From assembly GCF_018398935.1 (NCBI RefSeq), contig NZ_CP074694.1, positions 5,550,001 through 5,582,000 on the forward strand: a DNA stretch of 32,000 nt, read 5' to 3'. Positions 5,061-29,320 of this stretch are shown in pieces. The position numbers and the translations under genes are program-made. The notes under the pieces were generated by a model that searched no databases, was not told the origin of the DNA, and saw only the letters and a program-made list of their open reading frames with translations. The first letter of the stretch is position 1. Every line of letters begins with the position of its first letter. The DNA comes from Telmatocola sphagniphila. GTDB lineage: Bacteria > Planctomycetota > Planctomycetia > Gemmatales > Gemmataceae.

Positions 5061-5221
5061 ATGATGCCGATTAGTTAAAATTGATAGTTGATAAAAGTTA
5101 AAATGGTACTGCTGAAAGTTAACCACTGTCGCTGATGGTTTACAAAAGCCCTGCATTCCACCGTTCGCCCTCGGTTGAAAGCAGAATCAGATAGGGCGGG
5201 AAGTTTTTAAGAGCTAGCCCG

Positions 5222-5578: not shown

Positions 5579-5645
5579 ATTTTATTGGAAAGGCTTCTTT
5601 AGGGTTAGCACAGTGCTAAATCTGATTTTGAAAAGGTTTTGTATT

Positions 5646-5687
5646 GCTGATTGCTGATTGCTGACCGCTGACCGCTAATAGCTAAAT
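5646..5687 (+). repeat. 6 forward heptamers (gctgatt gctgatt gctgacc gctgacc gctaata gctaaat)
   Basis: Parsed by hand. Ends 13 nt before the nuoE ATG at 5701. Confidence 0.93.
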
Positions 5688-5700
5688 ATCGAAAGCAACT

Positions 5701-6183: not shown

Positions 6184-6186
6184 CTG

Positions 6187-6225
6187 TTAACCGCGACGCG
6201 AACAAGAAATATTAACCGCGACGCG
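6187..6225 (+). repeat. 14-nt perfect direct repeat TTAACCGCGACGCG, two copies
   Basis: Copies at 6187-6200 and 6212-6225, separated by 11 nt, in the nuoE-nuoF spacer. Confidence 0.9.
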
Positions 6226-6268
6226 CAGCGGAGCGTCTATAAAGCGAATTCACCCTCGGATTGAATAT

Positions 6269-7597
6269 ATGTCGAATTACGAACCAATTTTGCTCGCTCG
6301 CATCGGCAAGCCCGAAAGCTATAAGCTGGAAGGTTACCGCGCCGATGGCGGCTACGAAGCGTTCCTGAAGGCTCTCAAGAATTCCAAGCCGAACGAAGTC
6401 GTCGATACGATCAAAAACTCCGGTCTGCGCGGCCGCGGCGGTGCGGGATTTCCCACTGGCTTGAAATGGACCTTTCTGCCCAAGGATCACCCGGGTCCTA
6501 TCTATCTGTGCGTGAATGCCGACGAATCGGAACCTTGTACCTTCAATAACCGCATCCTGATGGAACTCGATCCGCATCAGGTTCTCGAAGGGGTCATGCT
6601 CGCCTGCTATGCGATCAAGAGTTCCCGCGCTTACTATTACATCCGCTACGAATATGGTTTGAGCTACCGCCGTTTGCAAGCGGCCATCGATGAACTTTAT
6701 GCCGCTGGCTTGCTCGGTCAGAATATCCAAGGTTCCGGTTTCAATCTCGATATCTATCTGCACCGCGGGGCTGGGGCGTATGTCTGTGGAGAAGAAACGG
6801 GATTGATCGAATCGCTGGAAGGCAAACGGGCCTGGCCGCGCATCAAGCCGCCGTTCCCGGCCATTGAAGGGGCGTTCCGCAAGCCCACCATCGTCAACAA
6901 CGTCGAAACCCTGGCTTGCGTTACCCAAATCATGCGTCGTGGGATCGACTGGTTCAAATCGATCGGAGTGGCGCCCGATCCGAAGAATCCCCGCGATGCG
7001 GGCAGCTACGGTCCGAAGCTTTACTGCGTTTCCGGACACGTGAATAATCCCGGCTGCTGGGAATTGCCCTTAGGCGTGACCTCGAATGAATTGATTCGGC
7101 TGGCCGGCGGCGTCTGGAAGGGTCGCAAAGTCAAAGCGGTTGTGCCCGGCGGACTCAGCATGGGTTTTTTAACCGCCAATGAACTGGAAGTGCCACTCGA
7201 TTTCAACGGCCCGGGTAAAGTCGGCTGCCTCGGTCTGGGAACGGCCGCTATAACGGTGATCGACGACCAAACCAGCATGATCGACGTGCTGCACAACACC
7301 TGCCAGTTCTACGCCCACGAATCGTGCGGCCAGTGCACCCCCTGTCGGGAAGGAACTGGTTGGATGCTGAAGATCACCGATCGACTTCGCAAAGGGCAGG
7401 GGCGAAAAGAAGACCTCGATATTCTGGTCGAAGTCGCCGACCGGATTGGTATCATGCCGGGATCGACGATTTGCGGCTTGGCCGATGGAGCGGGCTGGCC
7501 AGTGAAGAATGCGATTCGCAAGTTCCGTCAGGAATTCGAAGATGCGATCAAGACCGGCCGGAGAAGCCATTTGCGTCCTTTGGCGATGGCTCATTGA
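6269..7597 (+). CDS. nuoF: NADH-quinone oxidoreductase subunit F
   Basis: 442 aa. GLRGRGGAGFPTG marks the FMN/NADH site and ESCGQCTPCREG is the N3 4Fe-4S motif. Confidence 0.96.
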   Translation: MSNYEPILLARIGKPESYKLEGYRADGGYEAFLKALKNSKPNEVVDTIKNSGLRGRGGAGFPTGLKWTFLPKDHPGPIYLCVNADESEPCTFNNRILMELDPHQVLEGVMLACYAIKSSRAYYYIRYEYGLSYRRLQAAIDELYAAGLLGQNIQGSGFNLDIYLHRGAGAYVCGEETGLIESLEGKRAWPRIKPPFPAIEGAFRKPTIVNNVETLACVTQIMRRGIDWFKSIGVAPDPKNPRDAGSYGPKLYCVSGHVNNPGCWELPLGVTSNELIRLAGGVWKGRKVKAVVPGGLSMGFLTANELEVPLDFNGPGKVGCLGLGTAAITVIDDQTSMIDVLHNTCQFYAHESCGQCTPCREGTGWMLKITDRLRKGQGRKEDLDILVEVADRIGIMPGSTICGLADGAGWPVKNAIRKFRQEFEDAIKTGRRSHLRPLAMAH

Positions 7598-7677
7598 GCC
7601 GACGGGCGTCCTAACGGCATTAAAAAAAGGACGTTAGCAAGATTTTGTGACGCTTACTCCCGAAAGGAGACTCTCCT

Positions 7678-8115
7678 ATGCGTCGATTAAGTCTGATTTT
7701 TCTGGCGCTCTGGGTCTGTACCGGCTGCAATAAGACTGCGGGAACCGCAGATAAAAAAGGGAATGTCCCGAATACTAAGGAATCCTCCGATGATCGACAG
7801 ATCTCGAATGATTTGAAGCAACTGGGACTGGCGTTTCTCAACTATACGAGTACCCAGAAGGATATGAATCCGATCACGAGCCCTTTCGTCGGATCCCTGG
7901 ATGTGTTGAAGCCCTATCTGGGGGAAAAGGAAAATCCCCGACTGGTGCCGACTCTGGAGAGCGGTAAGTACAAGATCTTCTGGAATGCACCTGCTAAACA
8001 GAGAATCCTCGCCTGCGAAAAGGATGCGGAAACCAAAGGGGGCTTAGTTCTTACTCGAATTGGCTCCGTGGAAAGAATGTCGGCGGAAGAAATTCAGAAG
8101 GCCATTGTCAAATAA
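7678..8115 (+). CDS. small lipoprotein, paralog 1 (mini DUF1559/pseudopilin-like motifs)
   Basis: 145 aa. It has a signal peptide and Cys (MRRLSLIFLALWVCTGC), with GGAG 8 nt upstream. It is a paralog of the next ORF. SNDLKQLGLAFLNY and GGLVLTRIGSVERMS resemble the NNLKQIGLAxHNY and DGSVrFis motifs of planctomycetal DUF1559 proteins (by eye). Confidence 0.75.
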   Translation: MRRLSLIFLALWVCTGCNKTAGTADKKGNVPNTKESSDDRQISNDLKQLGLAFLNYTSTQKDMNPITSPFVGSLDVLKPYLGEKENPRLVPTLESGKYKIFWNAPAKQRILACEKDAETKGGLVLTRIGSVERMSAEEIQKAIVK

Positions 8116-8135
8116 TCGGGAAAGGGAGGTGGCGT

Positions 8136-8588
8136 ATGCGTCGATTACTCTTACTCGCCTGCCTGACGGTCGCTCTCCTGGGTTGCAAGAAGGAAGCGAA
8201 GGAGACGGAACCCAAAGCTAAGGCCATGAATCCGTTCGACCGGAGTGAGAAAACAGGTAATGGCGTGATCTCCGATGTGGCCCGCGCTCCCAAGCGAACC
8301 GTGGCCCAGAACGATATGCACAATCTTCACCTGTTGATCGAAACGATCTCCGGTGCCAGCGGTAATATGCCCGATGCGAACACGATTCTGACTTCCCTGA
8401 AGCAGGATCCGGATGCCAGAAAGATTGCCCAGTATATTGAGGAAGGCTGGATAATCCTGACTGGAATAAAACAGCGGGAAGGGGTCTGGGCCTACGAAAA
8501 AGAGGCTTTGACTACCCGCGGCTTCGTGGTGACCAACAGCGGCGTGGAGATGTTGAGCAAGGAAGAGCTTCAAGCGAAGCTTCGCTGA
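8136..8588 (+). CDS. small lipoprotein, paralog 2
   Basis: 150 aa. It has a good lipobox (MRRLLLLACLTVALLGC) and GGGAGG upstream. It shares the N-terminus, a central ND(L/M)xxL motif and a C-terminal EK(D/E)AxTxxGxVxTxxGxVExxSxEE(I/L)Q with paralog 1. Confidence 0.75.
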   Translation: MRRLLLLACLTVALLGCKKEAKETEPKAKAMNPFDRSEKTGNGVISDVARAPKRTVAQNDMHNLHLLIETISGASGNMPDANTILTSLKQDPDARKIAQYIEEGWIILTGIKQREGVWAYEKEALTTRGFVVTNSGVEMLSKEELQAKLR

Positions 8589-8646
8589 GGTTCGAAGAAT
8601 TCAAAGCGAGCGGAATGGTTGGATTCCAGGGATCGAAGAGAGACAT

Positions 8647-10290
8647 ATGGCAACGGTTTACGTCAATAACAAGGCGATAGACATCGGCAACGAGCGGCTT
8701 AACTGCGTGCAGGCCGCGGAGAAAGCCGGTGTTCTCGTTCCGCACTACTGCTACCACCCCGCGCTTTCGGTCGTGGCCAGTTGCCGCATGTGTCTGGTCG
8801 AAGTTGGTGAAAAAAAGCCGGATGGCACCATCGCTATGCAGCCCAAGGTCGTGCCCGGCTGCCAGACTCCCGTCAAAGACGGTACGGTTATCGTTACCGA
8901 CAGTCCCAAAGCCAAGGCCGCCCAGGGGGATACGCTGGAAGGGCTTTTGCTCAATCATCCGCTCGATTGCCCCGTTTGCGATAAGGCCGGCGAGTGCAAG
9001 TTGCAGGATTACTCCTTCCAGTTCGGGCATGCCCAGTCGCGCATGATCGATCAGAAGAATACGCCTCCGAATAAACCGGACATCAGCGAAAAGATCACTT
9101 TATTCACCGACCGCTGCATCCTCTGTACTCGCTGCGTCCGCTTCACCCGGGAAGTCGCCGGTACCGCCGAATTGACGGTGGTCGGCCGCGGCCACCACGA
9201 AGAAATAGATATTTTTCCCGGCGAGCCGCTGGCCAACAAACTGTCGGGGAACGTCGTCGATCTTTGCCCGGTCGGCGCCCTCGGTTCCAAGGACTTTCTG
9301 TACAAACAACGCGTCTGGTATCTCAAGGAAGAAGACAGCGTTTGCCCGAACTGTTCGACCGGCTGCAGCATCCAGGTCGATTCGAACAAGGATATCGTCT
9401 TCCGGCTGCGGCCGCGTTTCAACCCGCTGGCGCAAGGGCACTTCATGTGCGATGAAGGCCGTTACGGGTATCACTACATCAATTCGGATACCCGATTCGG
9501 CAAACCACTCGAACAGATTGAAGTGGGGCAGTTCAAAGCCGTAAGCTGGCAGAATGCCCTCAGCGGCATCAAAAAAGAGTTTCTCCTGGCCGGACAGGAA
9601 CATTCCGATCAGCTCTACGCGATTTTGTCGCCATTTCTGACCGTCGAGGAAGCCTATCTGGCGGCGAAATGGTTCAAAATGATTTCGCCGAATTCCAAGC
9701 TCGCGCTGGGGGCGGTTCCCGTTCACGGCGAGAACGATACTTATCCCAAGGATCGTCGCGGCAATGCTACCAGCACCGTGAAATTCACGATTCGGGCGGA
9801 AAAAGCTCCGAATCGACTGGGTGTGGAAGCGGTGTTGAAGCATTTCGAAGGAGAAGTGATCACTTTCGATCAGGTAGTTGAAGCCGTGAAGAGGAACGAA
9901 GTACAAGGTCTGTTCCTCACCGCGGGTTATCCGGACTCCAAGACGATCGACGATTATCAGGCCGACCGACTGGACGATGTGAAGCTGCTGGTAACGCTCG
10001 ATCTGTTGCCGAGCACGGTCGCCTCGGGTTCGAAATATATTTTGCCGGCCACGAGTTTTGCGGAAAAAGAAGGCACCTACGTCAACTACGCGGGATTGGC
10101 TCAAGGCCTCAAGCGAACGGTGAAAGCTCCGAAGGAATGCCGTCCGGAAGCCCAGATTTTCATGGATTTGCTTGGACTTCCCGGCCTCTACAACGCTCAA
10201 ACGATTCGGGAAATGATCGCTCGCGAAATTCCCTATTTCGCCCCGCTGGCGAAGGGGATTGGCGAATATGGTGTGAAGCTGGGGACCTGA
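8647..10290 (+). CDS. nuoG: NADH-quinone oxidoreductase subunit G (short form)
   Basis: 547 aa. It has 2Fe-2S cysteines at the N-terminus, HPLDCPVCDKAGECKLQD (N5), CILCTRCVRF...CPVGAL (N4), and CPNCSTGCS...MCDEGR (N7-type). Confidence 0.92.
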   Translation: MATVYVNNKAIDIGNERLNCVQAAEKAGVLVPHYCYHPALSVVASCRMCLVEVGEKKPDGTIAMQPKVVPGCQTPVKDGTVIVTDSPKAKAAQGDTLEGLLLNHPLDCPVCDKAGECKLQDYSFQFGHAQSRMIDQKNTPPNKPDISEKITLFTDRCILCTRCVRFTREVAGTAELTVVGRGHHEEIDIFPGEPLANKLSGNVVDLCPVGALGSKDFLYKQRVWYLKEEDSVCPNCSTGCSIQVDSNKDIVFRLRPRFNPLAQGHFMCDEGRYGYHYINSDTRFGKPLEQIEVGQFKAVSWQNALSGIKKEFLLAGQEHSDQLYAILSPFLTVEEAYLAAKWFKMISPNSKLALGAVPVHGENDTYPKDRRGNATSTVKFTIRAEKAPNRLGVEAVLKHFEGEVITFDQVVEAVKRNEVQGLFLTAGYPDSKTIDDYQADRLDDVKLLVTLDLLPSTVASGSKYILPATSFAEKEGTYVNYAGLAQGLKRTVKAPKECRPEAQIFMDLLGLPGLYNAQTIREMIAREIPYFAPLAKGIGEYGVKLGT

Positions 10291-10355
10291 AAAGCAGGAA
10301 GGGTCGACACGCGGATGCTCGCCGATTTGGCGGAAATCCCTAATCATGGGAAAAC

Positions 10356-11633
10356 ATGAGTACAGAGCATTTAATCTACACGCTGATATCGATCCTCGCG
10401 ATCATGTTCGTCATCCTGAATTCGGTGGCGGTGCTGACGCTGGGCGAACGCAAGATCTCCGCGTTCATGCAGGACCGCCTGGGTCCTAATCGCGTCGGAC
10501 CTTATGGGCTACTGCAGCCGATGGCCGACGGTATCAAGATGTTCTTCAAAGAGTGGGTCGTTCCCAAAAGCGTCGACAAACTCTTCTTCGCTCTGGCACC
10601 GGTGCTGGCCGCCTCCGTGGCTTTTCTGTCGTTTGCGGTAGTCCCTTTCGGGCCGACCCATCCGACACCGACGCCCCTCCGAATTGTCGAAGAAGCTGAC
10701 CTCACCGACGCGGTTAAGGGCACTCCGCTCGATCGGGTTTTCACGAGCGTCGAGCAGGCTCTGCCGGTCTACCAAAAAGAAGCGGAAAAAGACGAATCGA
10801 CCTGGAACTTCGTTATCGCTCCCCGCATGGACATCGGCATTCTGTTCGTTTTCGCCATCGGCAGCCTGACGGTTTACGGCATCATCCTCGGCGGCTGGTC
10901 GGGGAACAACAAGTATTCCTTGCTCGGCTCGCTGCGTTCTTCGGCCCAGATCATCAGCTACGAAATTCCGCTGGGAATGTCGATTCTGGGCTTGCTGCTC
11001 TACACCGGCTCATTGAATCTCGAACGAGTGATCGACTGGCAGGTCAACAACGGCTGGTTTATTCTCTATCAGCCGCTGGCGTTTCTATTGTTCATGACCT
11101 CGGTCTACGCCGAGTGTAACCGTCTGCCGTTCGACTTGCCCGAGGCCGAGCAGGAACTGGTGGGGGGCTACCACACCGAATACAACTCATTCGGTTTCGC
11201 CCTGTTCGCCATGGGCGAATATACCCACATGATCACCACCAGCTTCCTGATGTCGATCGCATTTTTCGGAGGCTGGCACTTCCCCGGCCTCTCCGATATC
11301 GGCGGTCTGATCGGAGTGCTGATCAAGTTCGGGATTCTGGGCGCCAAAGCCACGATCTTCCTGTTGCTGTTCCAGCTGGTGCGCTGGACCATTCCCCGGT
11401 TCCGCTTCGATCAACTGATGGGACTGGCCTGGCAGGTGCTCATTCCGCTTTCGATTCTCAACCTTCTGGCGGTGATGATCGTTCGGGAATTCAAACTGCC
11501 GATCTGGGTGATGACGGTGATTTCTTCCGTGCTGTTTTTGAGTGCGGCTCTGGCTTCGACGAAGGATTCCAACAAACCCCGACGTCGAGTGATAAAGGTG
11601 CCGAGCGAACCGCGTGAAGTGGTGAAAGTTTAA
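10356..11633 (+). CDS. nuoH: NADH-quinone oxidoreductase subunit H
   Basis: 425 aa. GERKISAFMQDRLGPNRVGPYGLLQPMADGIK and YAECNRLPFDLPEAEQELVGGYHTEY are NuoH/ND1 signatures. Confidence 0.95.
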   Translation: MSTEHLIYTLISILAIMFVILNSVAVLTLGERKISAFMQDRLGPNRVGPYGLLQPMADGIKMFFKEWVVPKSVDKLFFALAPVLAASVAFLSFAVVPFGPTHPTPTPLRIVEEADLTDAVKGTPLDRVFTSVEQALPVYQKEAEKDESTWNFVIAPRMDIGILFVFAIGSLTVYGIILGGWSGNNKYSLLGSLRSSAQIISYEIPLGMSILGLLLYTGSLNLERVIDWQVNNGWFILYQPLAFLLFMTSVYAECNRLPFDLPEAEQELVGGYHTEYNSFGFALFAMGEYTHMITTSFLMSIAFFGGWHFPGLSDIGGLIGVLIKFGILGAKATIFLLLFQLVRWTIPRFRFDQLMGLAWQVLIPLSILNLLAVMIVREFKLPIWVMTVISSVLFLSAALASTKDSNKPRRRVIKVPSEPREVVKV

Positions 11634-11642
11634 GGGTGTCCG

Positions 11643-12206
11643 ATGGCAACGACTGAAAAAGATGTTCGCTGGGTGGAAGAGCCTAAAGTAGGATTCTGGG
11701 AACGGCTGTACGTTCCCGCCATCCTTCAGGGCCTTTCGATCACCTCGAAACACATGACGCACAAGCCTCTGACGGAGCAGTACCCCGAACAGGAGCCGGA
11801 GTTGCCGCCGAACTATCGCGGCGTGCATCGACTGAACCGGGATACCGATGGCCGGGTCCGCTGCGTGGCCTGCTACATGTGCGCCACCGCCTGCCCGGCG
11901 AACTGCATCGATATCGTGGCCGCCCCGGCACCCAAGGAATGGACCGACCGGGAAAAATACCCGGCGACCTTCTGCATCGACGAACTGCGTTGCATCTACT
12001 GCGGCATGTGCGAAGAAGCCTGTCCTGTGGATGCGATCGAACTGACCAGCCTGTACGATCTGACGGGGTTGAGTCGCGAGCAGATGATTTTCGACAAGGA
12101 AAAGCTGCTGAGCGTTTTCGATCATACTTCCAAGACCGGCAAAGATCCGGTTCGATCCTCGGGTAGCAAACTGGGTCCGGCGGCGGAACTGCCAGTTATC
12201 AAATAG
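11643..12206 (+). CDS. nuoI: NADH-quinone oxidoreductase subunit I
   Basis: 187 aa. It carries two ferredoxin motifs, CVACYMCATACP and CIYCGMCEEACP. Confidence 0.95.
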   Translation: MATTEKDVRWVEEPKVGFWERLYVPAILQGLSITSKHMTHKPLTEQYPEQEPELPPNYRGVHRLNRDTDGRVRCVACYMCATACPANCIDIVAAPAPKEWTDREKYPATFCIDELRCIYCGMCEEACPVDAIELTSLYDLTGLSREQMIFDKEKLLSVFDHTSKTGKDPVRSSGSKLGPAAELPVIK

Positions 12207-12242
12207 GAATTCGCGGGTCTCCCGAAAGGGACTCTTTCAAAG

Positions 12243-13355
12243 GTGGATATGCTTTTCGCTGAAATCTATACCGGCAACCCGATGAACTGGGGCGTAGTCG
12301 TCCCGGTCGTCTTCGGGTTTGTCACGATCTGGCTGATGCTGCCCAGCCCGCAGCGCAAGCCAATCGTCTGGCCTGCGATCTGTGGCATCGCTGCCCTGGT
12401 CGGCGTTGCCATTTACCTGTCGCAAGGAATCGGTCACGGCATCGACGACGTGGTGGAGAATCTTCTCTTCACCAGCTTCTCGACCCTGGCGGTCAGCTTT
12501 GCCGGTCTGATGATCGCCCAGCGCAATCCGGCGCGAGCGGCCATCTGCTTCGCGCTGGTGGTGCTTAGCGTTTGTGGACTGTTCCTTTTGCTGGCGGCGC
12601 CATTTCTCATGGCGGCCTCGATCATCATCTATGCCGGGGCGATCATCGTAACCTTCCTGTTCGTGCTCATGCTTTCGCAACAGCACGGCATGACCGATGC
12701 CAACGACCGCAGCCGGGAGCCCTTCCTGGCTTCTTTAGTCGGCTTCGTGTTTTTGGGCACCCTGCTGGTGGGTCTGCAACGGGTCTACTCCGAAAAGGGT
12801 ATCGACGCCCCGATTAATATGTGCAACCACTTTGCCGAGGCCGACGCCCTGGACGAGAATTTCAAGAATCCGGGCTTCGTCGAATCTTTCCTGCAAAGCA
12901 TCATTTCGGTGAAGGAACGGCTGGCCCTGTCGATGCCAGTCCAGGATAAGGACAAGAAGGAATATCTTGCCCCGGCCGATGCGGTGACGAAAATCGAATC
13001 CGCCATAATCAATCTGCGAAACGAATTCTCCGGCAAGCCGAACCTCGGGGAGGTAAAGGCCAATTGCCGGGAAATCGCTAACCAGTTGAACTACCTGAAG
13101 GCCGTTCGCGAAGGGACTTTGAACCCGAATACCGATGTTCATACGTCGGCGAACAGCGTCTCGAAAGTCGTCGTGACCGACCCGAGCCATCCCGCCTCGG
13201 CGAATCGCCTGCCCGCCGCGAACGTGGCGGCTCTGGGCCGTTCGTTATTTACCGATCACCTGCTGGCCATCGAACTGGGGGGCACTTTGTTGCTCGTTGC
13301 CACGATTGGAGCCATCGCGATTGCCGGAACCCGGCAGGAGCGAGCCAAAGTATGA
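12243..13355 (+). CDS. nuoJ: NADH-quinone oxidoreductase subunit J (greatly expanded)
   Basis: 370 aa. The core IIIYAGAIIVTFLFVLML and the C-terminal LLAIELGGTLLLVATIGA match the NuoJ/ND6 TM3 and TM5 regions. The start is either GTG 12243 or ATG 12249. Confidence 0.9.
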   Translation: MDMLFAEIYTGNPMNWGVVVPVVFGFVTIWLMLPSPQRKPIVWPAICGIAALVGVAIYLSQGIGHGIDDVVENLLFTSFSTLAVSFAGLMIAQRNPARAAICFALVVLSVCGLFLLLAAPFLMAASIIIYAGAIIVTFLFVLMLSQQHGMTDANDRSREPFLASLVGFVFLGTLLVGLQRVYSEKGIDAPINMCNHFAEADALDENFKNPGFVESFLQSIISVKERLALSMPVQDKDKKEYLAPADAVTKIESAIINLRNEFSGKPNLGEVKANCREIANQLNYLKAVREGTLNPNTDVHTSANSVSKVVVTDPSHPASANRLPAANVAALGRSLFTDHLLAIELGGTLLLVATIGAIAIAGTRQERAKV

Positions 13356-13766
13356 TACCGGTTTCTTACTATCTCACGGTCGGGGCCATTCTGTTCTGCC
13401 TCGGGCTGATCGGCTTCCTGACCCGCCGGAACATGATCGTATTGTTCCTGTGCGCGGAACTGATGCTTCAGGGCGTGGCGTTGAACTTCGTCGCCTTCTC
13501 CCGCCATCACGGCAATATGCATGGTCAGGTGTTCGTGCTGTTCATCCTCACCGTCGCCGCTTGCGAAGCCGGTTTGGCCCTCGCTCTGATCCTGATGCTT
13601 TACCGGCAGAAAAAATCTTTGGATATCAGTCTCTGGCAGTCTTTGAAGGAAGCGGAAGTGGCACCGATTCGCGATACCGAGCCGTTCCCCGATCAGGAAC
13701 CCGCCCCGGTTTATCCGAAACTGGCCCCGGCTGGCGTCGAACCGAAGCGGGACGAGGAGGTGATTC

Positions 13767-13774
<8 letters not shown>
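13352..13774 (+). CDS. nuoK: NADH-quinone oxidoreductase subunit K (with C-terminal tail)
   Basis: 140 aa. LFLCAELMLQGVALNFVAFS and ACEAGLALALILMLYR are NuoK/ND4L signatures. It overlaps nuoJ in an ATGA arrangement. Confidence 0.93.
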
Positions 13775-15725
<1,951 letters not shown>

Positions 15726-15749
15726 TTCACAACTCTACCTGAGATTTGA

Positions 15750-17501
15750 ATGCTGAGTGCGGAAACAATTCGATCGCTTTTGCCGGTGCTGTTCGGTCTG
15801 CCTCTGGTGGCCGCACTGATCGTCAAACTATTTGGACAGAAACAGTCCCAGGCGCGAAGTCTGGCTCTGGTGTTCGCTCTGGTTCACCTGGGTCTGACGG
15901 TCGATGTGATTCTATCGGCGTATCTGCCCCTGAATTCCCGTCCGCTCGATCCGAATCCTGTGACGCGCCACAGCCCGATTTTCCTGCCGGAATTTGTGCC
16001 GGGTGATCCGGGCAGCGGCCATAAAGCTTCGGAGATTATCTCCACCGATGTGGATTCGCACACGACGACGTACAACTTGCTGCGATTCAGTGATGTGGAT
16101 GCCACAGGGGCTTTGAAGAATCCCAAAATGAAGAGCATTCAGTTCTTCATCGGTCTGGATGGTTTGAATGTCTGGATGCTCGGGCTAACCAGTCTGATCA
16201 TGCTTTCGATCGTGCTGGTGTCCTGGTCGGGCATCCAGGAAAACGCCGGCTCGTTCTATGCCTGGATATTCGCATTGCAAGCGGGGGCAATCGGTGTGTT
16301 TCTCGCCTTCGACATCATTCTTTTCTACGTTTGCTTTGAATTAACGCTGATTCCGCTCTTCTTCCTGATTGGCAATTGGGGCGTGGGTCCCACCCGCCGG
16401 GAAGCGGCCCGCAAACTCTTCCTCTACACTCTGGGCGGTGGATTGATCACGCTGGTCGGTATCGCGGGTGCGGTACTGATGGTCTACAACCACACGGGAA
16501 TCCTGACCTTTTCAATTCCCGAACTGTCGGAGAGCGTTTCGCAGATGCTCAGCAAGGCGGACGGCAATACCGTCGCCGGTGCTCGGACTTTGCAGATCTT
16601 CCTGTTCCTGGCTCTGGCCGTCGGATTCGCGGTCAAGATTCCGCTGGTGCCATTGCACACCTGGCTGCCGGGGGCTTATTCGGAAGCGCCCATCGGTGTT
16701 ACGGTCATGCTCTCGGCGATTCTCGCCAAGATGGGAACTTTCGGCCTCTTGCGAATTTGTCTGCCGCTGGCTCCCGATGCGACCTTGGTCGTCGGGGTGC
16801 CCTTGCTCGGTGTGATGGGAGCGGTGGGCATCGTCTACGGTGCATTCTGTGCGTTCGCTCAAAGCGACTTCAAAAAACTGGTTGCTTACAGTTCCGTAAG
16901 TCACCTCGGTTTCGTTGCTCTGGCCCTGGTGGCCTTCAATCATGAAGGCATGTCCGGGGGCATGCTGCATATGGTCAACCACGGCCTCTCGACCGGGGCG
17001 ATGTTCATTCTGGTGGGTCTGCTAATCGACCGCTACGGGACGACTCGCATCGTGGATTACTCCGGTATGTGGGCCAAGCTACCTAAGCTGACCTTCTTCA
17101 TGATGGTGATAGCCCTGGCTAGCGTCGGTCTGCCCGGTCTGAACAACTTCATCTCGGAAATGCTGATGCTCTTCGGGTTGTTCGATCTGCGCAACGCCAA
17201 CGTCACCACCATTTCTTTTGGAGTGGTGGGAGGCTTCGGCATCTTCCTCAGTGCCTGGTACACGCTGACGCTGGTACAGCGCGTCTTCTTCGGCCCGCTG
17301 CGCGAACCGGCTCCCGCCGTGCAGGGCGCGATCGTTAAAGATCTGAATCGCCGGGAATACTGGGCCATTGCCCCTTTGGCTCTGGGTTGCCTGCTTTTGG
17401 GAATTTTCCCCCAGGTCATTCTGACGACCATGGATCGGGATATCAAGGCCTTGACGATAGTCGCCGATGAAGCACGGCATCGTGCAGACCACGGCAAGTA
17501 A
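15750..17501 (+). CDS. nuoM: NADH-quinone oxidoreductase subunit M
   Basis: 583 aa. KIPLVPLHTWLPGAYSEAP and MLHMVNHGLSTGAMF are NuoM/ND4 signatures. Confidence 0.95.
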   Translation: MLSAETIRSLLPVLFGLPLVAALIVKLFGQKQSQARSLALVFALVHLGLTVDVILSAYLPLNSRPLDPNPVTRHSPIFLPEFVPGDPGSGHKASEIISTDVDSHTTTYNLLRFSDVDATGALKNPKMKSIQFFIGLDGLNVWMLGLTSLIMLSIVLVSWSGIQENAGSFYAWIFALQAGAIGVFLAFDIILFYVCFELTLIPLFFLIGNWGVGPTRREAARKLFLYTLGGGLITLVGIAGAVLMVYNHTGILTFSIPELSESVSQMLSKADGNTVAGARTLQIFLFLALAVGFAVKIPLVPLHTWLPGAYSEAPIGVTVMLSAILAKMGTFGLLRICLPLAPDATLVVGVPLLGVMGAVGIVYGAFCAFAQSDFKKLVAYSSVSHLGFVALALVAFNHEGMSGGMLHMVNHGLSTGAMFILVGLLIDRYGTTRIVDYSGMWAKLPKLTFFMMVIALASVGLPGLNNFISEMLMLFGLFDLRNANVTTISFGVVGGFGIFLSAWYTLTLVQRVFFGPLREPAPAVQGAIVKDLNRREYWAIAPLALGCLLLGIFPQVILTTMDRDIKALTIVADEARHRADHGK

Positions 17502-17540
17502 GCTTACACGCGGACACTACATTTGATTTTTGAGAGAGAC

Positions 17541-19115
17541 ATGCTCGAACTGTTTGCTGCAACCCCGACGCTCATCGATGTCAAAGTCGATCAAACGCTG
17601 CGCTCGGTATTTCCGCTGATCGTTCCGGAACTGATCCTCCTGGCGACTGCCTGCGTTCTGTTCCTGCTGTCAACGGTGAAGTCGAACCGCGTCGTCGCTG
17701 CCACCATATCCGTACTCGGTCTACTCACCGCATTGAACGTTCATCTGTTTCTGATCGATCAATCCAAGCATGCCGAGGCTTTGATACCGACAGTCGCACC
17801 GATACTGGGCGATTCGTTGGCCCACTTCGTTCGCGGGGTGTCTCTGGTGGCCGGGCTTTTGCTGGTGCTGATGGGCTGGAACGATACCAGTGATCGGCGA
17901 GCCGCCGACCACTATGCCTGCCTGTTGTGCGCGATTACCGGTCTTTCACTGGTCGCTAGTGCCAACGATCTGATTTTTCTCTTTCTGGCTCTGGAACTGA
18001 TCAGTATCCCGACTTATGTCCTGCTTTATCTGCCGCGCTACGAAGATCAGGTTTCGCAGGAAGCCGCGATCAAATACTTCCTGATGAGTATTCTTTCCTC
18101 GGCCATGCTGCTGTTTGGCTTCAGCTACCTGTATGGGCTGACTGGCACCACGAACCTCAAGGCTCTGGTGGAAATTCTGCCGCGCATGGTCGCGGGCGAT
18201 CAGGTGAATATGGCCTTGATTGCCATCGTGCTCTGTCTGGCCGGTTTAGGCTTCAAGATTACTGCGTTCCCGTTCCACTTTTATGCCCCGGATGTGTATC
18301 AGGGGGGACCGACGGGTGTCGTGGCGATGCTGGCGTTCGTTCCCAAGATGGCGGGGTTTGTGGCTCTGACGAAATTATTTGGTTCCTTCGCCGAAATGAT
18401 GGAAGCTTCCCCGGTGTTTATCCAGAGACTGATGCTGTTGCTCTGGATCTTCTCCGCGGTCACCATGACCATGGGGAACGTACTGGCTCTTTTGCAAACC
18501 AACCTCAAGCGCATGCTGGCTTATTCCAGCGTGGCCCATACTGGCTATATGCTGATGGGGCTGGCGGTTCTCCCCACTCAGGCTTACCGAGCGGAAGGAA
18601 GCACCGCCGTGATTCAGGGGAACGAAGCGATTTACTTCTATCTGATTTGCTACGGAATCATGACGATCGGTGCGTTCGCCAGCATTGCTTACTTGAATTC
18701 GAGGGAACGGCCGGTCGAAACGATTGAAGATTTGTCCGGCTTACACGAAACGCAACCCTGGTCGGCCGCTACGCTAACTCTGTTTTTGTTCAGCATGATC
18801 GGCTTGCCCCTGACGGCGGGTTTCGTGGCCAAGTTCCTGCTGTTCCTCGGCGCCATGTCGACTCCGGCCGCCGCTCCGCTGAAAGGAATGTATCCGATCC
18901 TGGCTCTGGTCGCCGCCGTGAACGCCGCCATCGCCGCGTTCTACTATCTGCGGATCGTCGGCGTGATGTACCTGCGAAGTTCGTTCAATCCCGTGAAGCC
19001 AACTCCGGCCGGTTCGATTCAGATTTGCATTACCATTTGTGCTATTCTGACGCTGGTATTCGGGATCTTCCCCTCGGCTCTGTTCCAACAGGCGAAGGTC
19101 GCCGTCGGGCCCTAA
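17541..19115 (+). CDS. nuoN: NADH-quinone oxidoreductase subunit N
   Basis: FKITAFPFHFYAPDVYQGGPT and KRMLAYSSVAHTGYM are NuoN/ND2 signatures. The track start is TTG 17523, but ATG 17541 preceded by GAGAGAG is preferred. Confidence 0.92.
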   Translation: MLELFAATPTLIDVKVDQTLRSVFPLIVPELILLATACVLFLLSTVKSNRVVAATISVLGLLTALNVHLFLIDQSKHAEALIPTVAPILGDSLAHFVRGVSLVAGLLLVLMGWNDTSDRRAADHYACLLCAITGLSLVASANDLIFLFLALELISIPTYVLLYLPRYEDQVSQEAAIKYFLMSILSSAMLLFGFSYLYGLTGTTNLKALVEILPRMVAGDQVNMALIAIVLCLAGLGFKITAFPFHFYAPDVYQGGPTGVVAMLAFVPKMAGFVALTKLFGSFAEMMEASPVFIQRLMLLLWIFSAVTMTMGNVLALLQTNLKRMLAYSSVAHTGYMLMGLAVLPTQAYRAEGSTAVIQGNEAIYFYLICYGIMTIGAFASIAYLNSRERPVETIEDLSGLHETQPWSAATLTLFLFSMIGLPLTAGFVAKFLLFLGAMSTPAAAPLKGMYPILALVAAVNAAIAAFYYLRIVGVMYLRSSFNPVKPTPAGSIQICITICAILTLVFGIFPSALFQQAKVAVGP

Positions 19116-22933: not shown

Positions 22934-23635
22934 ATGTGCGGACGATTTACCCAATACAACCATCGACGTCTTCTGGCCCGGCTCCATCAACTGGGGCTCG
23001 ACGAAGACGATATCGACAGTCCCTATTACAACCTCTCTCCCTCGCAGCTCATCCTGGCCGTGCGTCGGGTTATCGATCACAACGAAATTGCCCGGCTGCG
23101 CTGGGGCCTGATTCCCAGCTGGGCCAAAGATACTAGCATCGGCTACAAGACGATCAATGCCCGTTGCGAAACTATTCACGAAAAACCGGCCTTTCGCTCC
23201 GCCTTCAAACATCGCCGTTGTCTCATCCCGGCCGATGGCTTCTACGAATGGAAGCAGGTGAAGCCCAAGACGCCCTACTTTGTTTACCGGGCCGATAAAG
23301 AACCGATGGTCTTTGCCGGCCTCTGGGAAAGCTGGACCAGTCCCGAAGGGGAGATCATCGAATCCTGCTCGATTGTAACCACCGAAGCGAGCGAGATTAT
23401 CAAGCCGCTGCACGAGCGCATGCCGGTGATGGTCGAACCGGAGAATTTCGAACGCTGGCTCGACCCGGCCATTACTACCCGGGAAAAATTAGAAGATCTT
23501 TTCCTCACGCCGCCCTCTCAATTGCTGGCGCTGCATCCGGTCAGTGCCTTGGTCAATAGCCCGCGCAATCAAGGGCCGGCGCTGATCGAGGCCGTGGAGG
23601 AACCGACCCAACAGGGTTCTTTATTTCCTGATTAA
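22934..23635 (+). CDS. SOS response-associated peptidase (SRAP; YedK/HMCES family)
   Basis: 233 aa. It starts MCGRF (catalytic Cys2) and has RWGLIPSW, INARCET, CLIPADGFYEW and PLHERMPV, so all four canonical SRAP motifs are present. Confidence 0.92.
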   Translation: MCGRFTQYNHRRLLARLHQLGLDEDDIDSPYYNLSPSQLILAVRRVIDHNEIARLRWGLIPSWAKDTSIGYKTINARCETIHEKPAFRSAFKHRRCLIPADGFYEWKQVKPKTPYFVYRADKEPMVFAGLWESWTSPEGEIIESCSIVTTEASEIIKPLHERMPVMVEPENFERWLDPAITTREKLEDLFLTPPSQLLALHPVSALVNSPRNQGPALIEAVEEPTQQGSLFPD

Positions 23636-24019: not shown

Positions 24020-25534
24020 ATGAGCACTCTGAATCTGAATCTCTCTCCGGATCTCAAAGCATACTTTGCCGAAGAGCGCCGAGCGATCGACGAATCCTGT
24101 CGGTTACCAGTGCTGGTTTTTTTCGGCAGCGCGTTGGTCTGGTTGATTGTCGGCACACTACTCGGGTTAACCGCTTCGCTGAAGATGCACACGCCCGATT
24201 TTCTCGCCGACCATAGCTGGCTGACCTTCGGACGAATTCGACCGGCGCATTTGAACATGGTCACCATGGGCTGGGCGTCCAGCGCGGGCCTCGGTTGTTC
24301 CATCTGGTTGATGTGCCGTCTGTCGCGAATTCCTTTGATCTATCCCCGCATTCTTTTGATTGCCGCACTATCCCTCAATCTCGGGATGATTATCGCGCTC
24401 GTGGGAGTTCTCTCGGGATTCAGTCAGGGGGTGGAATGGCTGGAGCCGCCCCAGATTGTAGCGCCCTTCATGACTACCGCTCTCGCCCTCGTCTCGGCCT
24501 GGCTTATCGCCACACTCAGGAAACGGCGGGAAAAACACATCTACGTCACCCAATGGTACATCTTCGGCGCAATGTTCTGGATGCCCTGGATGTACACGGT
24601 CGCCCAACTGGTAATTTTTGGTATTCCGGGAGTGATGGATCCTGCTCGCGGCGTCGTTCAAGCCACCTGCAACTGGTGGTTTGCCCACAATTTTCTCGGC
24701 CTCTGGCTGACTCCGATCGGGGTCGGCGCGGCCTACTATATCATCCCAAAAATTGTCGGCCGGCCGGTGTATAGCTATCACCTGAGCATCATCGGATTCT
24801 GGGCTACCGCACTTTTCTACAGCTGGGTGGGCATGCATCATCTCATCGGTGGGCCGCTGCCGGCCTGGATGGTGACCGCCTCCATCGCCGGTTCCATACT
24901 GATGATCATCCCGGTGATGGCCGTGGCTCTCAATCATCACATGACCATGTGGGGTCATTTCCAGCAGCTGGTCTACAGCCCGGCCCTTCGCTTCGTCGTA
25001 TTCGGAGCCATCACTTATACGGCCGTCAGTATTCAAGGTTCGTTCGAAGCGTTACGCGATATGAACGTTATTACGCACTTCACCCACTACACCATTGCGC
25101 ACGCGCATCTCGGGGTCTATGGCTTTTATTCCATGGTGATGTTCGGCACCATGTATTACATCGTGCCGCGCTTGACCGGCGTGGAATGGGCATCGGCCAA
25201 ATTAATTCGCCTGCATTTCTGGAGCACATCTTTCGGCATAACCATCTATTACACCAGTCTGACTTTAGGGGGCTGGTACCAGGGACAAGCCCTGATTGCT
25301 GTAAACGAATTGAATCAACCGACTCCCTTCATTGAAATCGTACGCTACACGCAACCGTATCTGATCGGCCGCAGCATCGGCGGCTCCCTGATGGCTATCG
25401 GCCATTTCGTATTTGCCTATCTGTTCGTAGTTAATGTCTGTCGCTTGGGGCCGGTCAATGGGGGGCCGACTTATTTTGTGCCGCATGCTCAACCTTTAGC
25501 GGTCAGCGATCAGCAGTCAGCGGTCAGCTATTAG
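24020..25534 (+). CDS. ccoN: cbb3-type (C-family) heme-copper oxidase subunit I, orphan
   Basis: 504 aa and polytopic. FGRIRPAHLN carries the low-spin heme His. WWFAHNFLGLW carries a CuB His (compare WWYGHNAVGF). FYSWVGMHHL carries the cross-link Tyr and the HH CuB ligands (compare YIWAGPHHL). TIAHAHLG carries the heme b3 and heme b His residues (compare GHVH). Confidence 0.88.
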   Translation: MSTLNLNLSPDLKAYFAEERRAIDESCRLPVLVFFGSALVWLIVGTLLGLTASLKMHTPDFLADHSWLTFGRIRPAHLNMVTMGWASSAGLGCSIWLMCRLSRIPLIYPRILLIAALSLNLGMIIALVGVLSGFSQGVEWLEPPQIVAPFMTTALALVSAWLIATLRKRREKHIYVTQWYIFGAMFWMPWMYTVAQLVIFGIPGVMDPARGVVQATCNWWFAHNFLGLWLTPIGVGAAYYIIPKIVGRPVYSYHLSIIGFWATALFYSWVGMHHLIGGPLPAWMVTASIAGSILMIIPVMAVALNHHMTMWGHFQQLVYSPALRFVVFGAITYTAVSIQGSFEALRDMNVITHFTHYTIAHAHLGVYGFYSMVMFGTMYYIVPRLTGVEWASAKLIRLHFWSTSFGITIYYTSLTLGGWYQGQALIAVNELNQPTPFIEIVRYTQPYLIGRSIGGSLMAIGHFVFAYLFVVNVCRLGPVNGGPTYFVPHAQPLAVSDQQSAVSY

Positions 25535-25570
25535 CTAGTAGCGGTCAGCGATCAGCGATCAGCGGTCAGC
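25498..25570 (-). repeat. 10 heptamers in reverse orientation (ggtcagc gatcagc agtcagc ggtcagc tattagc tagtagc ggtcagc gatcagc gatcagc ggtcagc)
   Basis: Parsed by hand from 25501 and phase-perfect. The first five units encode the last residues (AVSDQQSAVSY) and the TAG stop of the ccoN-like ORF. Confidence 0.95.
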
Positions 25571-25630
25571 ATTGAATAAACCATTGCCTTTGGTCAGTAA
25601 CGCTTGAGCGTGAACAATTAGCATTTCCTA

Positions 25631-25651
25631 GCTGAAAGCTGAAAGCTGAAA
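25631..25651 (+). repeat. 3 forward heptamers (gctgaaa x3) plus a degenerate fourth
   Basis: gctgaaagctgaaagctgaaagctctat. It abuts the stop (25655) of the convergent 154-aa gene. Confidence 0.9.
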
Positions 25652-25654
25652 GCT

Positions 25655-26119
25655 CTATATATCCTCCTCAATCAATATCGGCTGACGGTCGGTCCGGGTC
25701 ATCACCCGGTAGTAGCGGGAAGGCTCCTTGCAGACGACGTAAACGTGCGGGATCTGATTTTGATCGCGAACCAGTATTCCCTGTATTCCCTGCCGGACGG
25801 GGTACCAGACGCCGTTGGCTAAAGCGAGATTTGCCAGGATGCGCACTCCTTCCGGCTGACAATTTCCCCAACGTCCTTCGTCGAGACTCTGTTTCCAGGT
25901 CCAGCCGGTTTGCGGCAAAGCACAACGGCGGTCGATATTGCCCCAGGGGACGATTTGAAACTCTCCTTCGTACCAAATCGGTAGCAAGCGCACGGCGTCC
26001 AGCCAGAGAAAACGAAACTCCTGGATGCCCGGCCCGCGCGAGTAGAGCCGTTTACGCAGTCGGAAGCGTTCGACCAGCTCGGGCGGAATTTCGCATTCGA
26101 GAAGTGCCACGCCGTTCAT
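25655..26119 (-). CDS. hypothetical 154-aa protein translationally coupled to the UmuC-like polymerase; possibly a degenerate SRAP-like fold
   Basis: Its ATG shares one base with the polymerase TGA (TGATG at 26117-26121). Motif resemblance to the SRAP in this window, by eye: EFQIVPWG versus EIARLRWG; LANGVWYPVRQ versus PADGFYEWKQ; VVCKEPSRYYRVMTRTDRQPILIEE versus IVTTEASEIIKPLHERMPVMVEPE. It lacks Cys2, the Glu in the DGxxEW-equivalent motif and the His in the HxRMP-equivalent motif; no NARxE-type motif is recognisable. Confidence 0.7.
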   Translation of the reverse strand: MNGVALLECEIPPELVERFRLRKRLYSRGPGIQEFRFLWLDAVRLLPIWYEGEFQIVPWGNIDRRCALPQTGWTWKQSLDEGRWGNCQPEGVRILANLALANGVWYPVRQGIQGILVRDQNQIPHVYVVCKEPSRYYRVMTRTDRQPILIEEDI

Positions 26120-27336
26120 CAGAAACAGGTCTTTCCTTTAATGTCGCAGATGTCGAAGGAGTGGGTGGTATCGGAATAGATTTCCCGAAGCGGCAATGTG
26201 GCCGCACTGCGCACTGCAAAGCGGCCGATGCGTTCGTTGATTTTCTTTTTGATCTCGGCCACCGCCTTGGCCGGTTCTTCGGGCGGTGGAAACAGACTGG
26301 CCTGACGGCAACCGGCCCGGCGCAGGTCACCGGCAATAACGTGCATATGCGTGGCCACCCAGCCCGGGCGATAAGCTCGCGCCAGGGCCACCTTGGCCGA
26401 TTCCAGCAGTTCATCGAAACGATCGGTCGGGCCATCCAACGGCCCTTCACCCCCCAGCGACGGCCGATCGTCGGCATAGCTGAGAAACAGCGTCAGTTTC
26501 CCGGCGTGCACCTGATACCAGTTCAATTCCTCGATCAGGCGTTCCACATTGCGGACCAGCCAGGCGTGCAGCACGCGCGGATCGTAAACCTTCCCGGCCA
26601 TGCTTCCGCCGCGGGAGAGGAATTTGTGGGGCGTCCGCTCGGTATTGATGCGAATGACCGGCTCGCCGCGCAGTTCGTACCAAAGTCCTTCGCCGACTTT
26701 AGTGATCAGTTGCAGAATCAGTTTGCGGTCGGCATTGATGAAATCGAGGCAGGTCCGAATGCCTCGATCCATCAGGGTTTTTGCCCGGCGCGAAGCGATG
26801 CCGGTGATTTCGGAAACGGAAAGTCGGGCGAGCAGTTCCCGTTCTTCCTCGGGCGTGAAAAGGGCCTTGGCTCCGAAGGGTTTGGCCGTGTCGCTGATCA
26901 GTTTGGCCAGGGTACGCGAGCGGGCGACGCCGATGGTCACTGGCACGCCGATCTGATTAGAAATCTCCTGCTGAATCTTCTGGGCAAGTAGCTGAGGGGA
27001 AGGATCGTCCACGGTGAAGAAAAATTCATCGATACTGTAGAATTCCGAACAGGAGGAATATCGCCGGACGATTTCCAGCATGTCTCGCGAAAGTACTTCG
27101 TACCAGCGAAAATCGCGCTTGACGTAAATACCTTCAGGGCAAAGGGCTTGCGCTTCCCAGACGGTCGTTCCGGTTTTAACACCGGCCGCTTTCATTTCGT
27201 AGCTCTTGGCAATGACGCACGCTCCCTGATTGCCCAGCACTCCGACCGGTTTGCCGCGCAGCCAGGGGAAGCGCACCCGCTCGGCCGAGACGTAAAAGCA
27301 GTCTGCATCGAGATGGGCAATCAACGGTCTGGCCAT
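26119..27336 (-). CDS. Y-family DNA polymerase, UmuC-like
   Basis: 405 aa. LDADCFYVSAERV...GKPVGVLGNQGACVIAKSYEMKAAGVKTG parallels E. coli UmuC (DVNAFYASCE...GKPVVVLSNNDGCVIARNAEAKALGVKMG). YSIDEFF matches YSIDEAF. GGAAGGA lies upstream of the ATG. Confidence 0.9.
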   Translation of the reverse strand: MARPLIAHLDADCFYVSAERVRFPWLRGKPVGVLGNQGACVIAKSYEMKAAGVKTGTTVWEAQALCPEGIYVKRDFRWYEVLSRDMLEIVRRYSSCSEFYSIDEFFFTVDDPSPQLLAQKIQQEISNQIGVPVTIGVARSRTLAKLISDTAKPFGAKALFTPEEERELLARLSVSEITGIASRRAKTLMDRGIRTCLDFINADRKLILQLITKVGEGLWYELRGEPVIRINTERTPHKFLSRGGSMAGKVYDPRVLHAWLVRNVERLIEELNWYQVHAGKLTLFLSYADDRPSLGGEGPLDGPTDRFDELLESAKVALARAYRPGWVATHMHVIAGDLRRAGCRQASLFPPPEEPAKAVAEIKKKINERIGRFAVRSAATLPLREIYSDTTHSFDICDIKGKTCF

Positions 27337-27457
27337 GTTCCATTCCTTCCGTAGCGGAATGTATACAGGTTTATACTACTACAGTAATATGTCAAGCGCC
27401 GTTGCGGAAGTCAAAAAAAACGGGGAAATGGGATAAGTGGGCGTTCAGAAGAGAGGG

Positions 27458-27479
27458 GTGGGTACGATTGTACCCACCG
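27458..27479 (-). terminator. GC-rich hairpin after the TlpA-like gene
   Basis: GGTGGGTAC, loop gatt, GTACCCACC: a perfect 9-bp stem with a 4-nt loop. It begins 16 nt after the stop on the minus strand. No strong U-tract follows directly; a T8 run lies about 40 nt further on. Confidence 0.45.
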
Positions 27480-28828: not shown

Positions 28829-29320
28829 ATGAAAAAGTTTCTAGTAGCGTCGATGGGTCTGGCCCTGGTGTGCGGTTTGGGCATCCAAGGTAATGCTCGA
28901 CTGGTGTCGCAGGAAATCGCGAAAGCCCAGGAGAAGAAAGTGCCCACCGAAGAAGACAAAATCAAACACAAAGCTCTGATGGCTAAGAAACTGGCTTTAT
29001 CCCAGGATATTCTGAAGGCTCTGGTGCTCAACGATCTGCCTGAAGCCAAGGTGCGCGCGGAAGATCTCATCAAGCTTCGTAAAGAAGCGGCCTGGATGAT
29101 GAAGATCAAGAAAGATCAGTTGGCCGATTACAACACCTTCAGCAACGATTTCACCCGAAGCGCGGAGAAAGTTATCAAGTCCTGCAAGGAAAATAATCTG
29201 GATCGGGCCAAATTCGGTTATCTGGAAATGACTCTCGCCTGTTTCAACTGTCATGCGGCTTGCCGGGACATGCTGGAAATCAAGAGCGACCTTCCGAACC
29301 TGGAAGTCCTGAAAAAGTGA
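28829..29320 (+). CDS. class II c-type cytochrome (cytochrome c'-like four-helix bundle)
   Basis: 163 aa. It has a signal peptide and a helical body. A single CxxCH (CFNCH) lies about 25 residues from the C-terminus, which is the class II arrangement. Confidence 0.6.
   Translation: MKKFLVASMGLALVCGLGIQGNARLVSQEIAKAQEKKVPTEEDKIKHKALMAKKLALSQDILKALVLNDLPEAKVRAEDLIKLRKEAAWMMKIKKDQLADYNTFSNDFTRSAEKVIKSCKENNLDRAKFGYLEMTLACFNCHAACRDMLEIKSDLPNLEVLKK

Follow-up and report, generated by a model that had tools for sequence, protein, structure and literature searches.

Two genes on the minus strand of a 32-kb stretch of the Telmatocola sphagniphila genome, the whole of which was analysed and is called the window here, encode a UmuC-like Y-family DNA polymerase of 405 residues and, directly after it, a protein of 154 residues that an earlier note on this DNA had likened by eye to the SRAP proteins. 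Both open reading frames (ORFs) lie where that note placed them (Table 1), and they meet, as it said, in a TGATG overlap, the stop codon of the polymerase gene and the start codon of the small gene sharing the base A. The identity of the polymerase was confirmed by Pfam matches to IMS (PF00817, E 1.8e-36) and IMS_C (E 1.6e-9), and the catalytic motifs HLDADCFY and SIDEFF (Asp/Asp/Glu) are intact. No NCBIfam DinB or UmuC model was reached at its cut-off, all scores lying below, and the polymerase therefore belongs to a clade separate from those covered by the curated models. No S24/UmuD or YolD gene turned up when all sizeable ORFs of the window were scanned with Pfam, in agreement with the note's claim that umuD is missing, and Pfam recognizes neither an S24 peptidase nor a YolD domain in the 154-residue protein itself.

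Fold and family of the 154-residue protein

The 154-residue protein has no Pfam or NCBIfam match, with PF02586 (SRAP) absent at E<=1, and a Pfam search with ten distant family members likewise gave no SRAP match at E<=1. BLASTP against the canonical SRAP of the window was not significant (E 0.81), and the family profile, run against the PDB sequences, matched only a BLIP-II beta-propeller repeat, spuriously, at E ~4. The family nonetheless extends well beyond this genome: a word-indexed search yielded 35 close relatives, and an exhaustive profile search yielded 722 cluster representatives at 50% identity, with 380 below 1e-10 and proteins of ~155 residues, of which 150 were retrieved as sequences. 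The ORF was also considered as a non-coding artefact of the gene overlap, a candidate rejected on the basis of 35 or more homologues at E<1e-25, a ratio of nonsynonymous to synonymous substitution rates (dN/dS) of ~0.29, and a structural model with a predicted local distance difference test (pLDDT) score of 95.

Structurally, the AlphaFold2 model of the protein, built from a 33-sequence alignment, reached a pLDDT of 95.1 and a predicted template modelling score (pTM) of 0.90. Its six best Foldseek matches in the PDB are all SRAPs, namely BT_1218 (2f20), HMCES (5ko9), YedK (6kbz, 2icu and 6nuh) and 1zn6, with probabilities from 0.99 to 0.44, E-values of 0.055-0.33 and a query TM-score (TMq) of up to 0.60, all other matches having a probability of 0.11 or less. 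Alignment of the family with 120 canonical SRAPs by hhalign gave E 0.0027 over 109 columns and brought together EFQIVPWG with EIARLRWG, ILAN..W with IPADGFYEW, and TDRQPILIE with HERMPVMVE (small protein first), thereby reproducing the three motif pairings that had been made by eye with the SRAP of the window. A control with reversed SRAP gave E 0.29, and the global mode of hhalign was uninformative.

A transitive route to the same fold passes through a subgroup of stand-alone proteins of 155-170 residues, characterized by MCGGI...GHDRMP and found in Chloroflexota (Roseiflexaceae), Patescibacteria and unassigned metagenomes. No Pfam family covers these compact SRAPs, which are linked to the core family by HMMER and to canonical SRAP by hhalign (probability 75%, E 2.5e-5, 141 collinear columns); in the latter alignment MCG falls on MCG, the Glu on Glu105 and the His of HDRMP on His160. 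Their AlphaFold2 model (pLDDT 91.7) has only two Foldseek matches, HMCES (6oeb) and BT_1218, each with a probability of 1.00. With the window protein, they share the architecture of ~155-170 residues and the invariants LP, WGN, LPxTGW, GxW, Y136 and P147; they differ from it in possessing the full Cys2/Glu/His set and, in the five genomic contexts inspected, in lacking a polymerase neighbour.

Because fold, profile and transitive homology agree, the 154-residue protein is a compact SRAP derivative, minus the C-terminal ~60 residues and an internal segment of ~19 residues. The SRAP-like fold proposed in the earlier note was thus recovered by both profile and structure searches. A convergent or spurious resemblance, with the protein belonging to some unrelated fold family, is extremely improbable: SRAPs are the sole PDB neighbours with a probability above 0.11-0.44 for two independent models, the 141 columns of the hhalign alignment are collinear, with MCG/MCG, E/E105 and HDRMP/HxRMP in register, the reversed-sequence control fails, and the family was independently classed as SRAP-like in PMC12926913, all of which has to be set against the missing Pfam and NCBIfam matches, a profile search of the PDB sequences without relevant match, and Foldseek E-values above 0.001. 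An analogue of UmuD or YolD by homology was rejected as well, given the SRAP fold and the lack of an S24 or SH3-like signature.

Relative to canonical SRAPs such as YedK and HMCES (PF02586), the protein retains the fold core seen by Foldseek and the collinear motifs WG, IPAxxxxxW and xxRxP, but it has ~155 instead of ~220 residues and does not match PF02586. All 25 invariant residues of its family are kept. The polymerase-linked clade additionally has invariants of its own, W75 and YYRVM (Y136-Y137-R-V-M140), which the stand-alone subgroup does not have and which are candidates for a new protein interface.

Catalytic residues in the window copy and in the family

YedK absolutely requires Cys2 for its thiazolidine crosslink; Glu105 is next in importance, while His160 contributes at least 10-fold and Asn75 little (PMC9436759). 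The window protein starts with MNGVA and has no Cys2, the codon of which has been deleted, judged by relatives such as MCDGIA. In the profile alignment, Ala101 occupies the position of Glu105 and Thr143 that of His160, and the Arg-x-Glu that follows the Asn75 position is represented by W75 and Q77. The equivalent of Asn75 falls in a gap beside the invariant W73 throughout the compact family, polymerase-linked and stand-alone, and is thus lacking in all of it relative to canonical SRAPs. The earlier note had correctly listed Cys2, Glu and His as missing, with Thr in place of His; its Tyr at the Glu position is Ala101, which leaves the conclusion the same, and the Asn that it could not align confidently is the one that falls in the gap. 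The crosslink to abasic (AP) sites is predicted to be absent in the window protein, since Cys2 is indispensable for it in YedK.

Most members of the family differ from the window copy in this respect. The residue frequencies refer to 172 well-aligned sequences (169 when three of MCGG type are left out), mostly polymerase-clade members and family representatives: Cys2 is present in 74% (about 74-83% of polymerase-linked members), Glu or Asp at the Glu position in 59%, and His in ~5%, and an M-C start occurs in 69 of 83 genomic loci. Aligned Cys2 is missing in at most 44 of the 172, or ~35 once truncated or miscalled starts are discounted, and the N-termini of these Cys-less members are diverse (MNG, MDG, MHG, MLxG, MSxG and MAxG), which suggests that Cys2 was lost repeatedly. 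As judged from these alignments, the catalytically dead state belongs to a minority lineage and is not a family trait, and the idea of a non-crosslinking SRAP-like module fails as a general statement, since most members keep Cys2 and many the Glu.

In the stand-alone subgroup, Cys2, Glu and His are 100% conserved among 120 sequences, and no Y-family polymerase lies nearby in any of the five genomic contexts inspected; these proteins are probably genuine AP-site crosslinkers. Full conservation here, against 74%, 59% and 5% in the polymerase-linked set, fits a history in which a compact AP-site crosslinker was taken on as a polymerase subunit and the constraint on its chemistry was then relaxed. 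The small subunit would accordingly derive from compact stand-alone SRAPs with the full crosslinking set, Cys2, Glu and His would have come under relaxed constraint in the polymerase-linked clade, and the window copy would have lost all three. One of the stand-alone loci (L088) has a RadC-like gene just downstream.

The nearest Cys-less relative of the window protein, 58% identical to it, also directly follows an orthologous polymerase, and the dN/dS between the two is ~0.29, an approximate value at a dS of 1.23. Together with the 25 retained invariants, this ratio indicates that the small protein is under purifying selection and is maintained without SRAP chemistry. It is improbable that the window copy is the decaying, no longer functional remnant of a once-active Cys2 crosslinker. 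Such decay would account for the joint loss of Cys2, Glu and His, plus the Glu of the R-x-E motif (Q77), and the two or three copies of the module in some genomes would make redundancy possible, as in Limnoglobus roseus, where only one of the two small proteins has Cys2. Yet the ORF is uninterrupted and closely coupled to a polymerase that is itself intact, the substitution ratio and the full set of invariants are those of a maintained protein, the model has a pLDDT of 95, and the diverse N-termini indicate that Cys loss is repeated and tolerated.

A residual covalent reaction with damaged DNA through another nucleophile, for instance the N-terminal amine acting as a Schiff-base former or lyase, is very improbable. 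The YedK C2A variant does keep Schiff-base and AP-lyase activity via its alpha-amine, but this activity depends strongly on Glu105, being reduced 25-fold in C2A E105Q (PMC9436759), and the corresponding residue is Ala in the window protein. The His is absent as well. Moreover, residue 2 is Asn, before which the initiator Met is probably retained, following the general specificity of Met aminopeptidase.

Conservation and proposed role of the gene pair

The gene pair was surveyed in loci taken from metagenomes and from one genome per species, 83 in all, of which 79 were informative and four were cut at a contig end. An orthologous polymerase, 50-60% identical to that of the window, adjoins the small gene in 78 of the 79, the sole exception being L077. 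The pair is thus conserved far beyond this genome, nearly all of its loci being in Planctomycetota (Gemmataceae, Isosphaeraceae, Planctomycetaceae, Pirellulales and Thermoguttaceae), and the small gene is a conserved partner of the UmuC-like polymerase in loci without umuD. In 61 pairs the genes are co-directional, with the polymerase first, and in the other 17 they are divergent around a shared intergenic region of 59-136 bp. With gaps of 0 to ~1000 nt between the genes across the loci and 17 of 78 pairs divergent, the TGATG coupling, although present in the window, is local, and translational coupling was rejected as a defining trait. Several genomes carry the module in two or three copies: Limnoglobus roseus (L009 and L024), MFD04463.bin.2.167 (L050, L080 and L081) and Paludisphaera soli (L074 and L082). 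In L. roseus, the copy with Cys2 is L024 (MCTAVALP) and the copy without it L009 (MRAIALPT). Several polymerases in long-read metagenome-assembled genomes seem frameshifted, which may be sequencing error.

The earlier note regarded the pair as an undescribed two-gene translesion module, and in this it was anticipated. A "UmuC-SRAP-like(-RecA) system" of Planctomycetes was published in February 2026 (Timinskas, Kazlauskas, Timinskas & Venclovas, NAR 2026, PMC12926913), as one of 11 putative mutasome types in that survey, which includes SRAP-like proteins in its list of putative regulatory subunits that bind PolY. The supplement lists UmuC-like, SRAP-like and RecA proteins in Gimesia maris, Aeoliella mucimassa, Singulisphaera acidiphila, Limnoglobus roseus and Polystyrenella longa, and the AlphaFold-Multimer models of these orthologous UmuC-SRAP-like-RecA complexes have interface scores (ipTM) of ~0.82-0.88. 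The treatment is purely computational, consisting of two sentences and the supplementary models, and leaves the catalytic residues undiscussed. Our literature search found no other paper on the UmuC-SRAP-like system.

By sequence, the window proteins are clear members of that system. The small protein is 37-45% identical over its full length to QEL14819, QDU57894, QDU13703, AGA24969 and QDU82800 (BLASTP E 1e-30 to 4e-45), the polymerase is 52% identical (E 2e-146) to the Aeoliella UmuC-like protein QDU57893, and the two families stand in the same adjacency. The polymerases also share a conserved C-terminal tail, ...GRFxxRSxxTL...YDICDIxGKxCF, which in the window reads YDICDIKGKTCF. The difference lies in the residues: the five published examples all start with MC and two have the His of HDRMP, whereas Cys2, Glu and His are all missing from the window copy. 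It is a fully degenerate member of this recently described kind, and stands out only by the loss of every catalytic residue.

Comparable arrangements are known from Pol V (UmuD'2C-RecA) and from the Bacillus YqjW/UvrX polymerases with YqjX/YolD, where a small accessory gene likewise lies beside a Y-family polymerase, RecA is the proposed third partner, and a regulatory role is presumed for the small subunit (PMC6511836; PMC12926913). UmuD' and YolD have SH3-like beta cores, in contrast to the SRAP fold of the 154-residue protein; and while RecA activates UmuD, an S24 autopeptidase, the 154-residue protein has no S24 domain and no cleavage activation is evident. SRAPs, for their part, have known genomic links to SOS and translesion synthesis (TLS) genes (PMC3765255). 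No role as a polymerase subunit is known for YedK or HMCES, whereas such a role is presumed for the SRAP-like protein here.

We put at roughly 70% the probability that the 154-residue protein is a non-catalytic small subunit of the UmuC-like TLS polymerase, with a non-covalent role analogous to that of UmuD' or YolD. The planctomycete type of module would then comprise a catalytically intact UmuC-like polymerase and an SRAP-like subunit of ~155 residues, which takes the place of UmuD' in Pol V or of YolD/YqjX in Bacillus, with RecA as the presumed third component. Most likely the subunit would bind the polymerase non-covalently to regulate or target it, and the SRAP groove may still read single-stranded DNA (ssDNA) or lesions. 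The fold, homology, residue states, pair conservation and purifying selection observed here carry this reading, and the complex with polymerase and RecA is taken from the published AlphaFold-Multimer models of orthologues (PMC12926913). The purifying selection on a fully dead copy argues that the subunit role does not require crosslinking.

Several points weigh against this assignment. The retention of Cys2 in most relatives suggests that Cys chemistry may have been part of what the subunit did ancestrally, in which case the window copy could be functionally impaired and not merely different. The polymerase has no Pfam match to DUF4113 (RecA-NT motif) at E<=1, and pairwise alignment of its tail with planctomycete RecA N-termini scores within the shuffle range. 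The interaction of polymerase and small protein is taken from published models, in which every orthologous small protein begins with MC. The Foldseek E-values are weak (0.01-0.3) at TM-scores of ~0.5-0.6, which makes the 154-residue protein a remote, reduced version of the SRAP fold, and the dS behind the selection estimate is near saturation.

Five loci, the window among them (Table 1), have a canonical SRAP gene no more than 4 kb from the module, and in two of them (L024 and L084) it is directly divergent from the polymerase. Canonical SRAPs seem to occur near the module more often than by chance, which suggests a shared damage-response neighbourhood. These neighbours, the SRAP fold of the small protein, the existence of stand-alone relatives without a polymerase, and the 17 of 78 divergent pairs, in which co-translation is not required, would all suit a protein that acts on its own, is co-expressed with the polymerase and binds ssDNA or lesions, shielding or marking abasic or other lesions non-covalently and passing them on to the polymerase with no stable complex between the two. 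We consider this unlikely in view of the near-obligate adjacency to one polymerase clade (78 of 79 loci), the high-confidence interfaces published for orthologues, and the clade-specific invariants W75 and YYRVM, which would fit a new interface with another protein.

The timing and place of action of error-prone polymerases are set by their small subunits, with UmuD' as the paradigm, and an SRAP-derived subunit, if its role is as proposed, would link abasic-site sensing directly to TLS. Beyond what PMC12926913 describes, the partner family is large (722 representatives) and not in Pfam, with stand-alone forms outside Planctomycetes that are seemingly catalytically competent, and the loss of SRAP catalytic residues in the polymerase-linked clade is graded, the window copy being its fully dead end-state. 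One doubtful extension is that the polymerase-linked compact SRAPs represent an enzyme-to-adaptor transition in progress: members with Cys2 and Glu would hold the TLS polymerase at an abasic ssDNA site by a reversible covalent bond, as a lesion-anchored loader, and window-type lineages would keep the docking only. HMCES is reported as an inhibitor of mutagenic TLS (PMC9436759); were the extension true, SRAP crosslinking, thought in HMCES to oppose mutagenic TLS, would have been rewired in Planctomycetes to recruit TLS. Current knowledge is not overturned by these results, which sharpen an experimentally tractable question.

Candidate promoter, possible regulation and surroundings of the module

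Upstream of the polymerase gene, a terminator-like hairpin follows the redoxin gene (Table 1), by which the polymerase and the small gene are predicted to form a separate transcription unit. The candidate promoter of this unit has CTGTA repeats flanking its -10 box at a spacing of N11. Among 70 orthologous polymerase upstream regions, 29 contain GTNCA-N12-GTNCA, with 0.14 expected in shuffles, and 25 of these 29 have a fixed arrangement, TTGAC-N9/10-GTNCA-N12-GTNCA, around a -10-like AATAAA or ACTAAA box. The ATG often follows only 2-17 nt after the repeat element, which suggests that the mRNAs made from the orthologous promoters have little or no leader and that these promoters contain a repressor operator. 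The window version is degenerate, with a spacing one nt shorter than the orthologous one, and CTGTA-N12-CTGTA is not enriched in the window (16 matches against 8.7 expected). Eight Gemmataceae loci instead have the palindrome TAGTGAAC-N6-CACTA (TAGTG-N10-CACTA), with 0.01 expected. Further upstream in these loci there are repeated CGGAACA motifs beside two conserved ORFs of 137 and 86 residues, divergent from the polymerase and without Pfam match.

The upstream repeats look like repressor operators over the core promoter, and their half-sites presumably resemble known LexA half-sites. A literature search for a planctomycete LexA box found nothing usable. The conserved repeat element around the -10 box, which goes beyond the account in PMC12926913, could define a damage regulon of these bacteria. 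Expression of the window module may be damage-inducible, and we infer this for the window only tentatively given its degenerate operator with the shorter spacing. The canonical SRAP gene, ~2 kb from the module, possibly belongs to the same damage regulon. In the divergent-type locus L002, a gene immediately beside the SRAP-like gene encodes a protein of 132 residues with a LexA DNA-binding domain alone (PF01726, E 5e-12), without an S24 peptidase domain, and a DDE transposase is nearby.

Table 1. Positions of features in the window and in the loci used for comparison
Feature	Location	Positions	Strand	Remarks
UmuC-like Y-family DNA polymerase, 405 aa	Window	26119-27336	-	Catalytic residues intact; Pfam IMS, IMS_C
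Compact SRAP-like small protein, 154 aa	Window	25655-26119	-	Without Cys2, Glu, His
TGATG stop/start overlap, polymerase to small gene	Window	26117-26121	-	Read from sequence; TGA 26119-26121, ATG 26117-26119
Candidate promoter with operator-like repeats	Window	27360-27395	-	TTGACA 27395-27390, 16 nt, TAAACC 27373-27368; CTGTA 27384-27380 and 27368-27364
Terminator-like hairpin after upstream redoxin gene	Window	27457-27478	-	Consensus scan, pattern match only
Canonical SRAP, YedK-like, 233 aa	Window	22934-23635	+	PF02586 E 1.8e-73; Cys2/Glu/His present
nuo operon	Window	1862-19115	+	
NuoJ-like ORF, 370 aa	Window	12243-13355		
ORF of 163 aa	Window	28829-29320	+	
AGCGATC array, x10	Window	25498-25570		78% matches
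AGCTGAA array, x3.6	Window	25630-25654		100% matches
Canonical SRAP near the module	L004	91-753		
Canonical SRAP near the module	L018	6793-7392		
Canonical SRAP near the module	L024	1196-1846		
Canonical SRAP near the module	L084	2198-2797		
Stand-alone compact SRAP	L088	4001-4510		
Stand-alone compact SRAP	L089	4001-4477		
Stand-alone compact SRAP	L090	4001-4480		
Stand-alone compact SRAP	L091	4001-4486		
Stand-alone compact SRAP	L092	3001-3477		
LexA DNA-binding domain alone, 132 aa	L002	6739-7137	-	
TAGTG-N10-CACTA	L001, L003, L004, L024, L060, L063, L066, L067	~30-60 nt upstream of polymerase		
Fixed promoter arrangement	L017, L023, L030, L035, L037, L038, L042, L050, L086 and ~16 more			

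The Pfam content of the window further includes the nuo operon, a TPR protein, COX1, a redoxin, an AAA ATPase and HisRS, and an Rfam scan of the region from 22 to 29 kb gave no match. The nuo operon (NADH:quinone oxidoreductase, complex I) looks complete and occupies the first 19 kb, its NuoJ-like ORF being unusually long. In the ORF of 163 residues, which has no Pfam match, the N-terminus resembles a signal peptide and the C-terminal part contains CFNCH, a CxxCH motif like those that bind haem; this ORF may encode a small c-type cytochrome. Two tandem heptanucleotide arrays lie in the intergenic region towards which the COX1-like and SRAP-like genes converge, and one of them (AGCTGAA) begins directly after the TAG stop codon of the SRAP-like gene.

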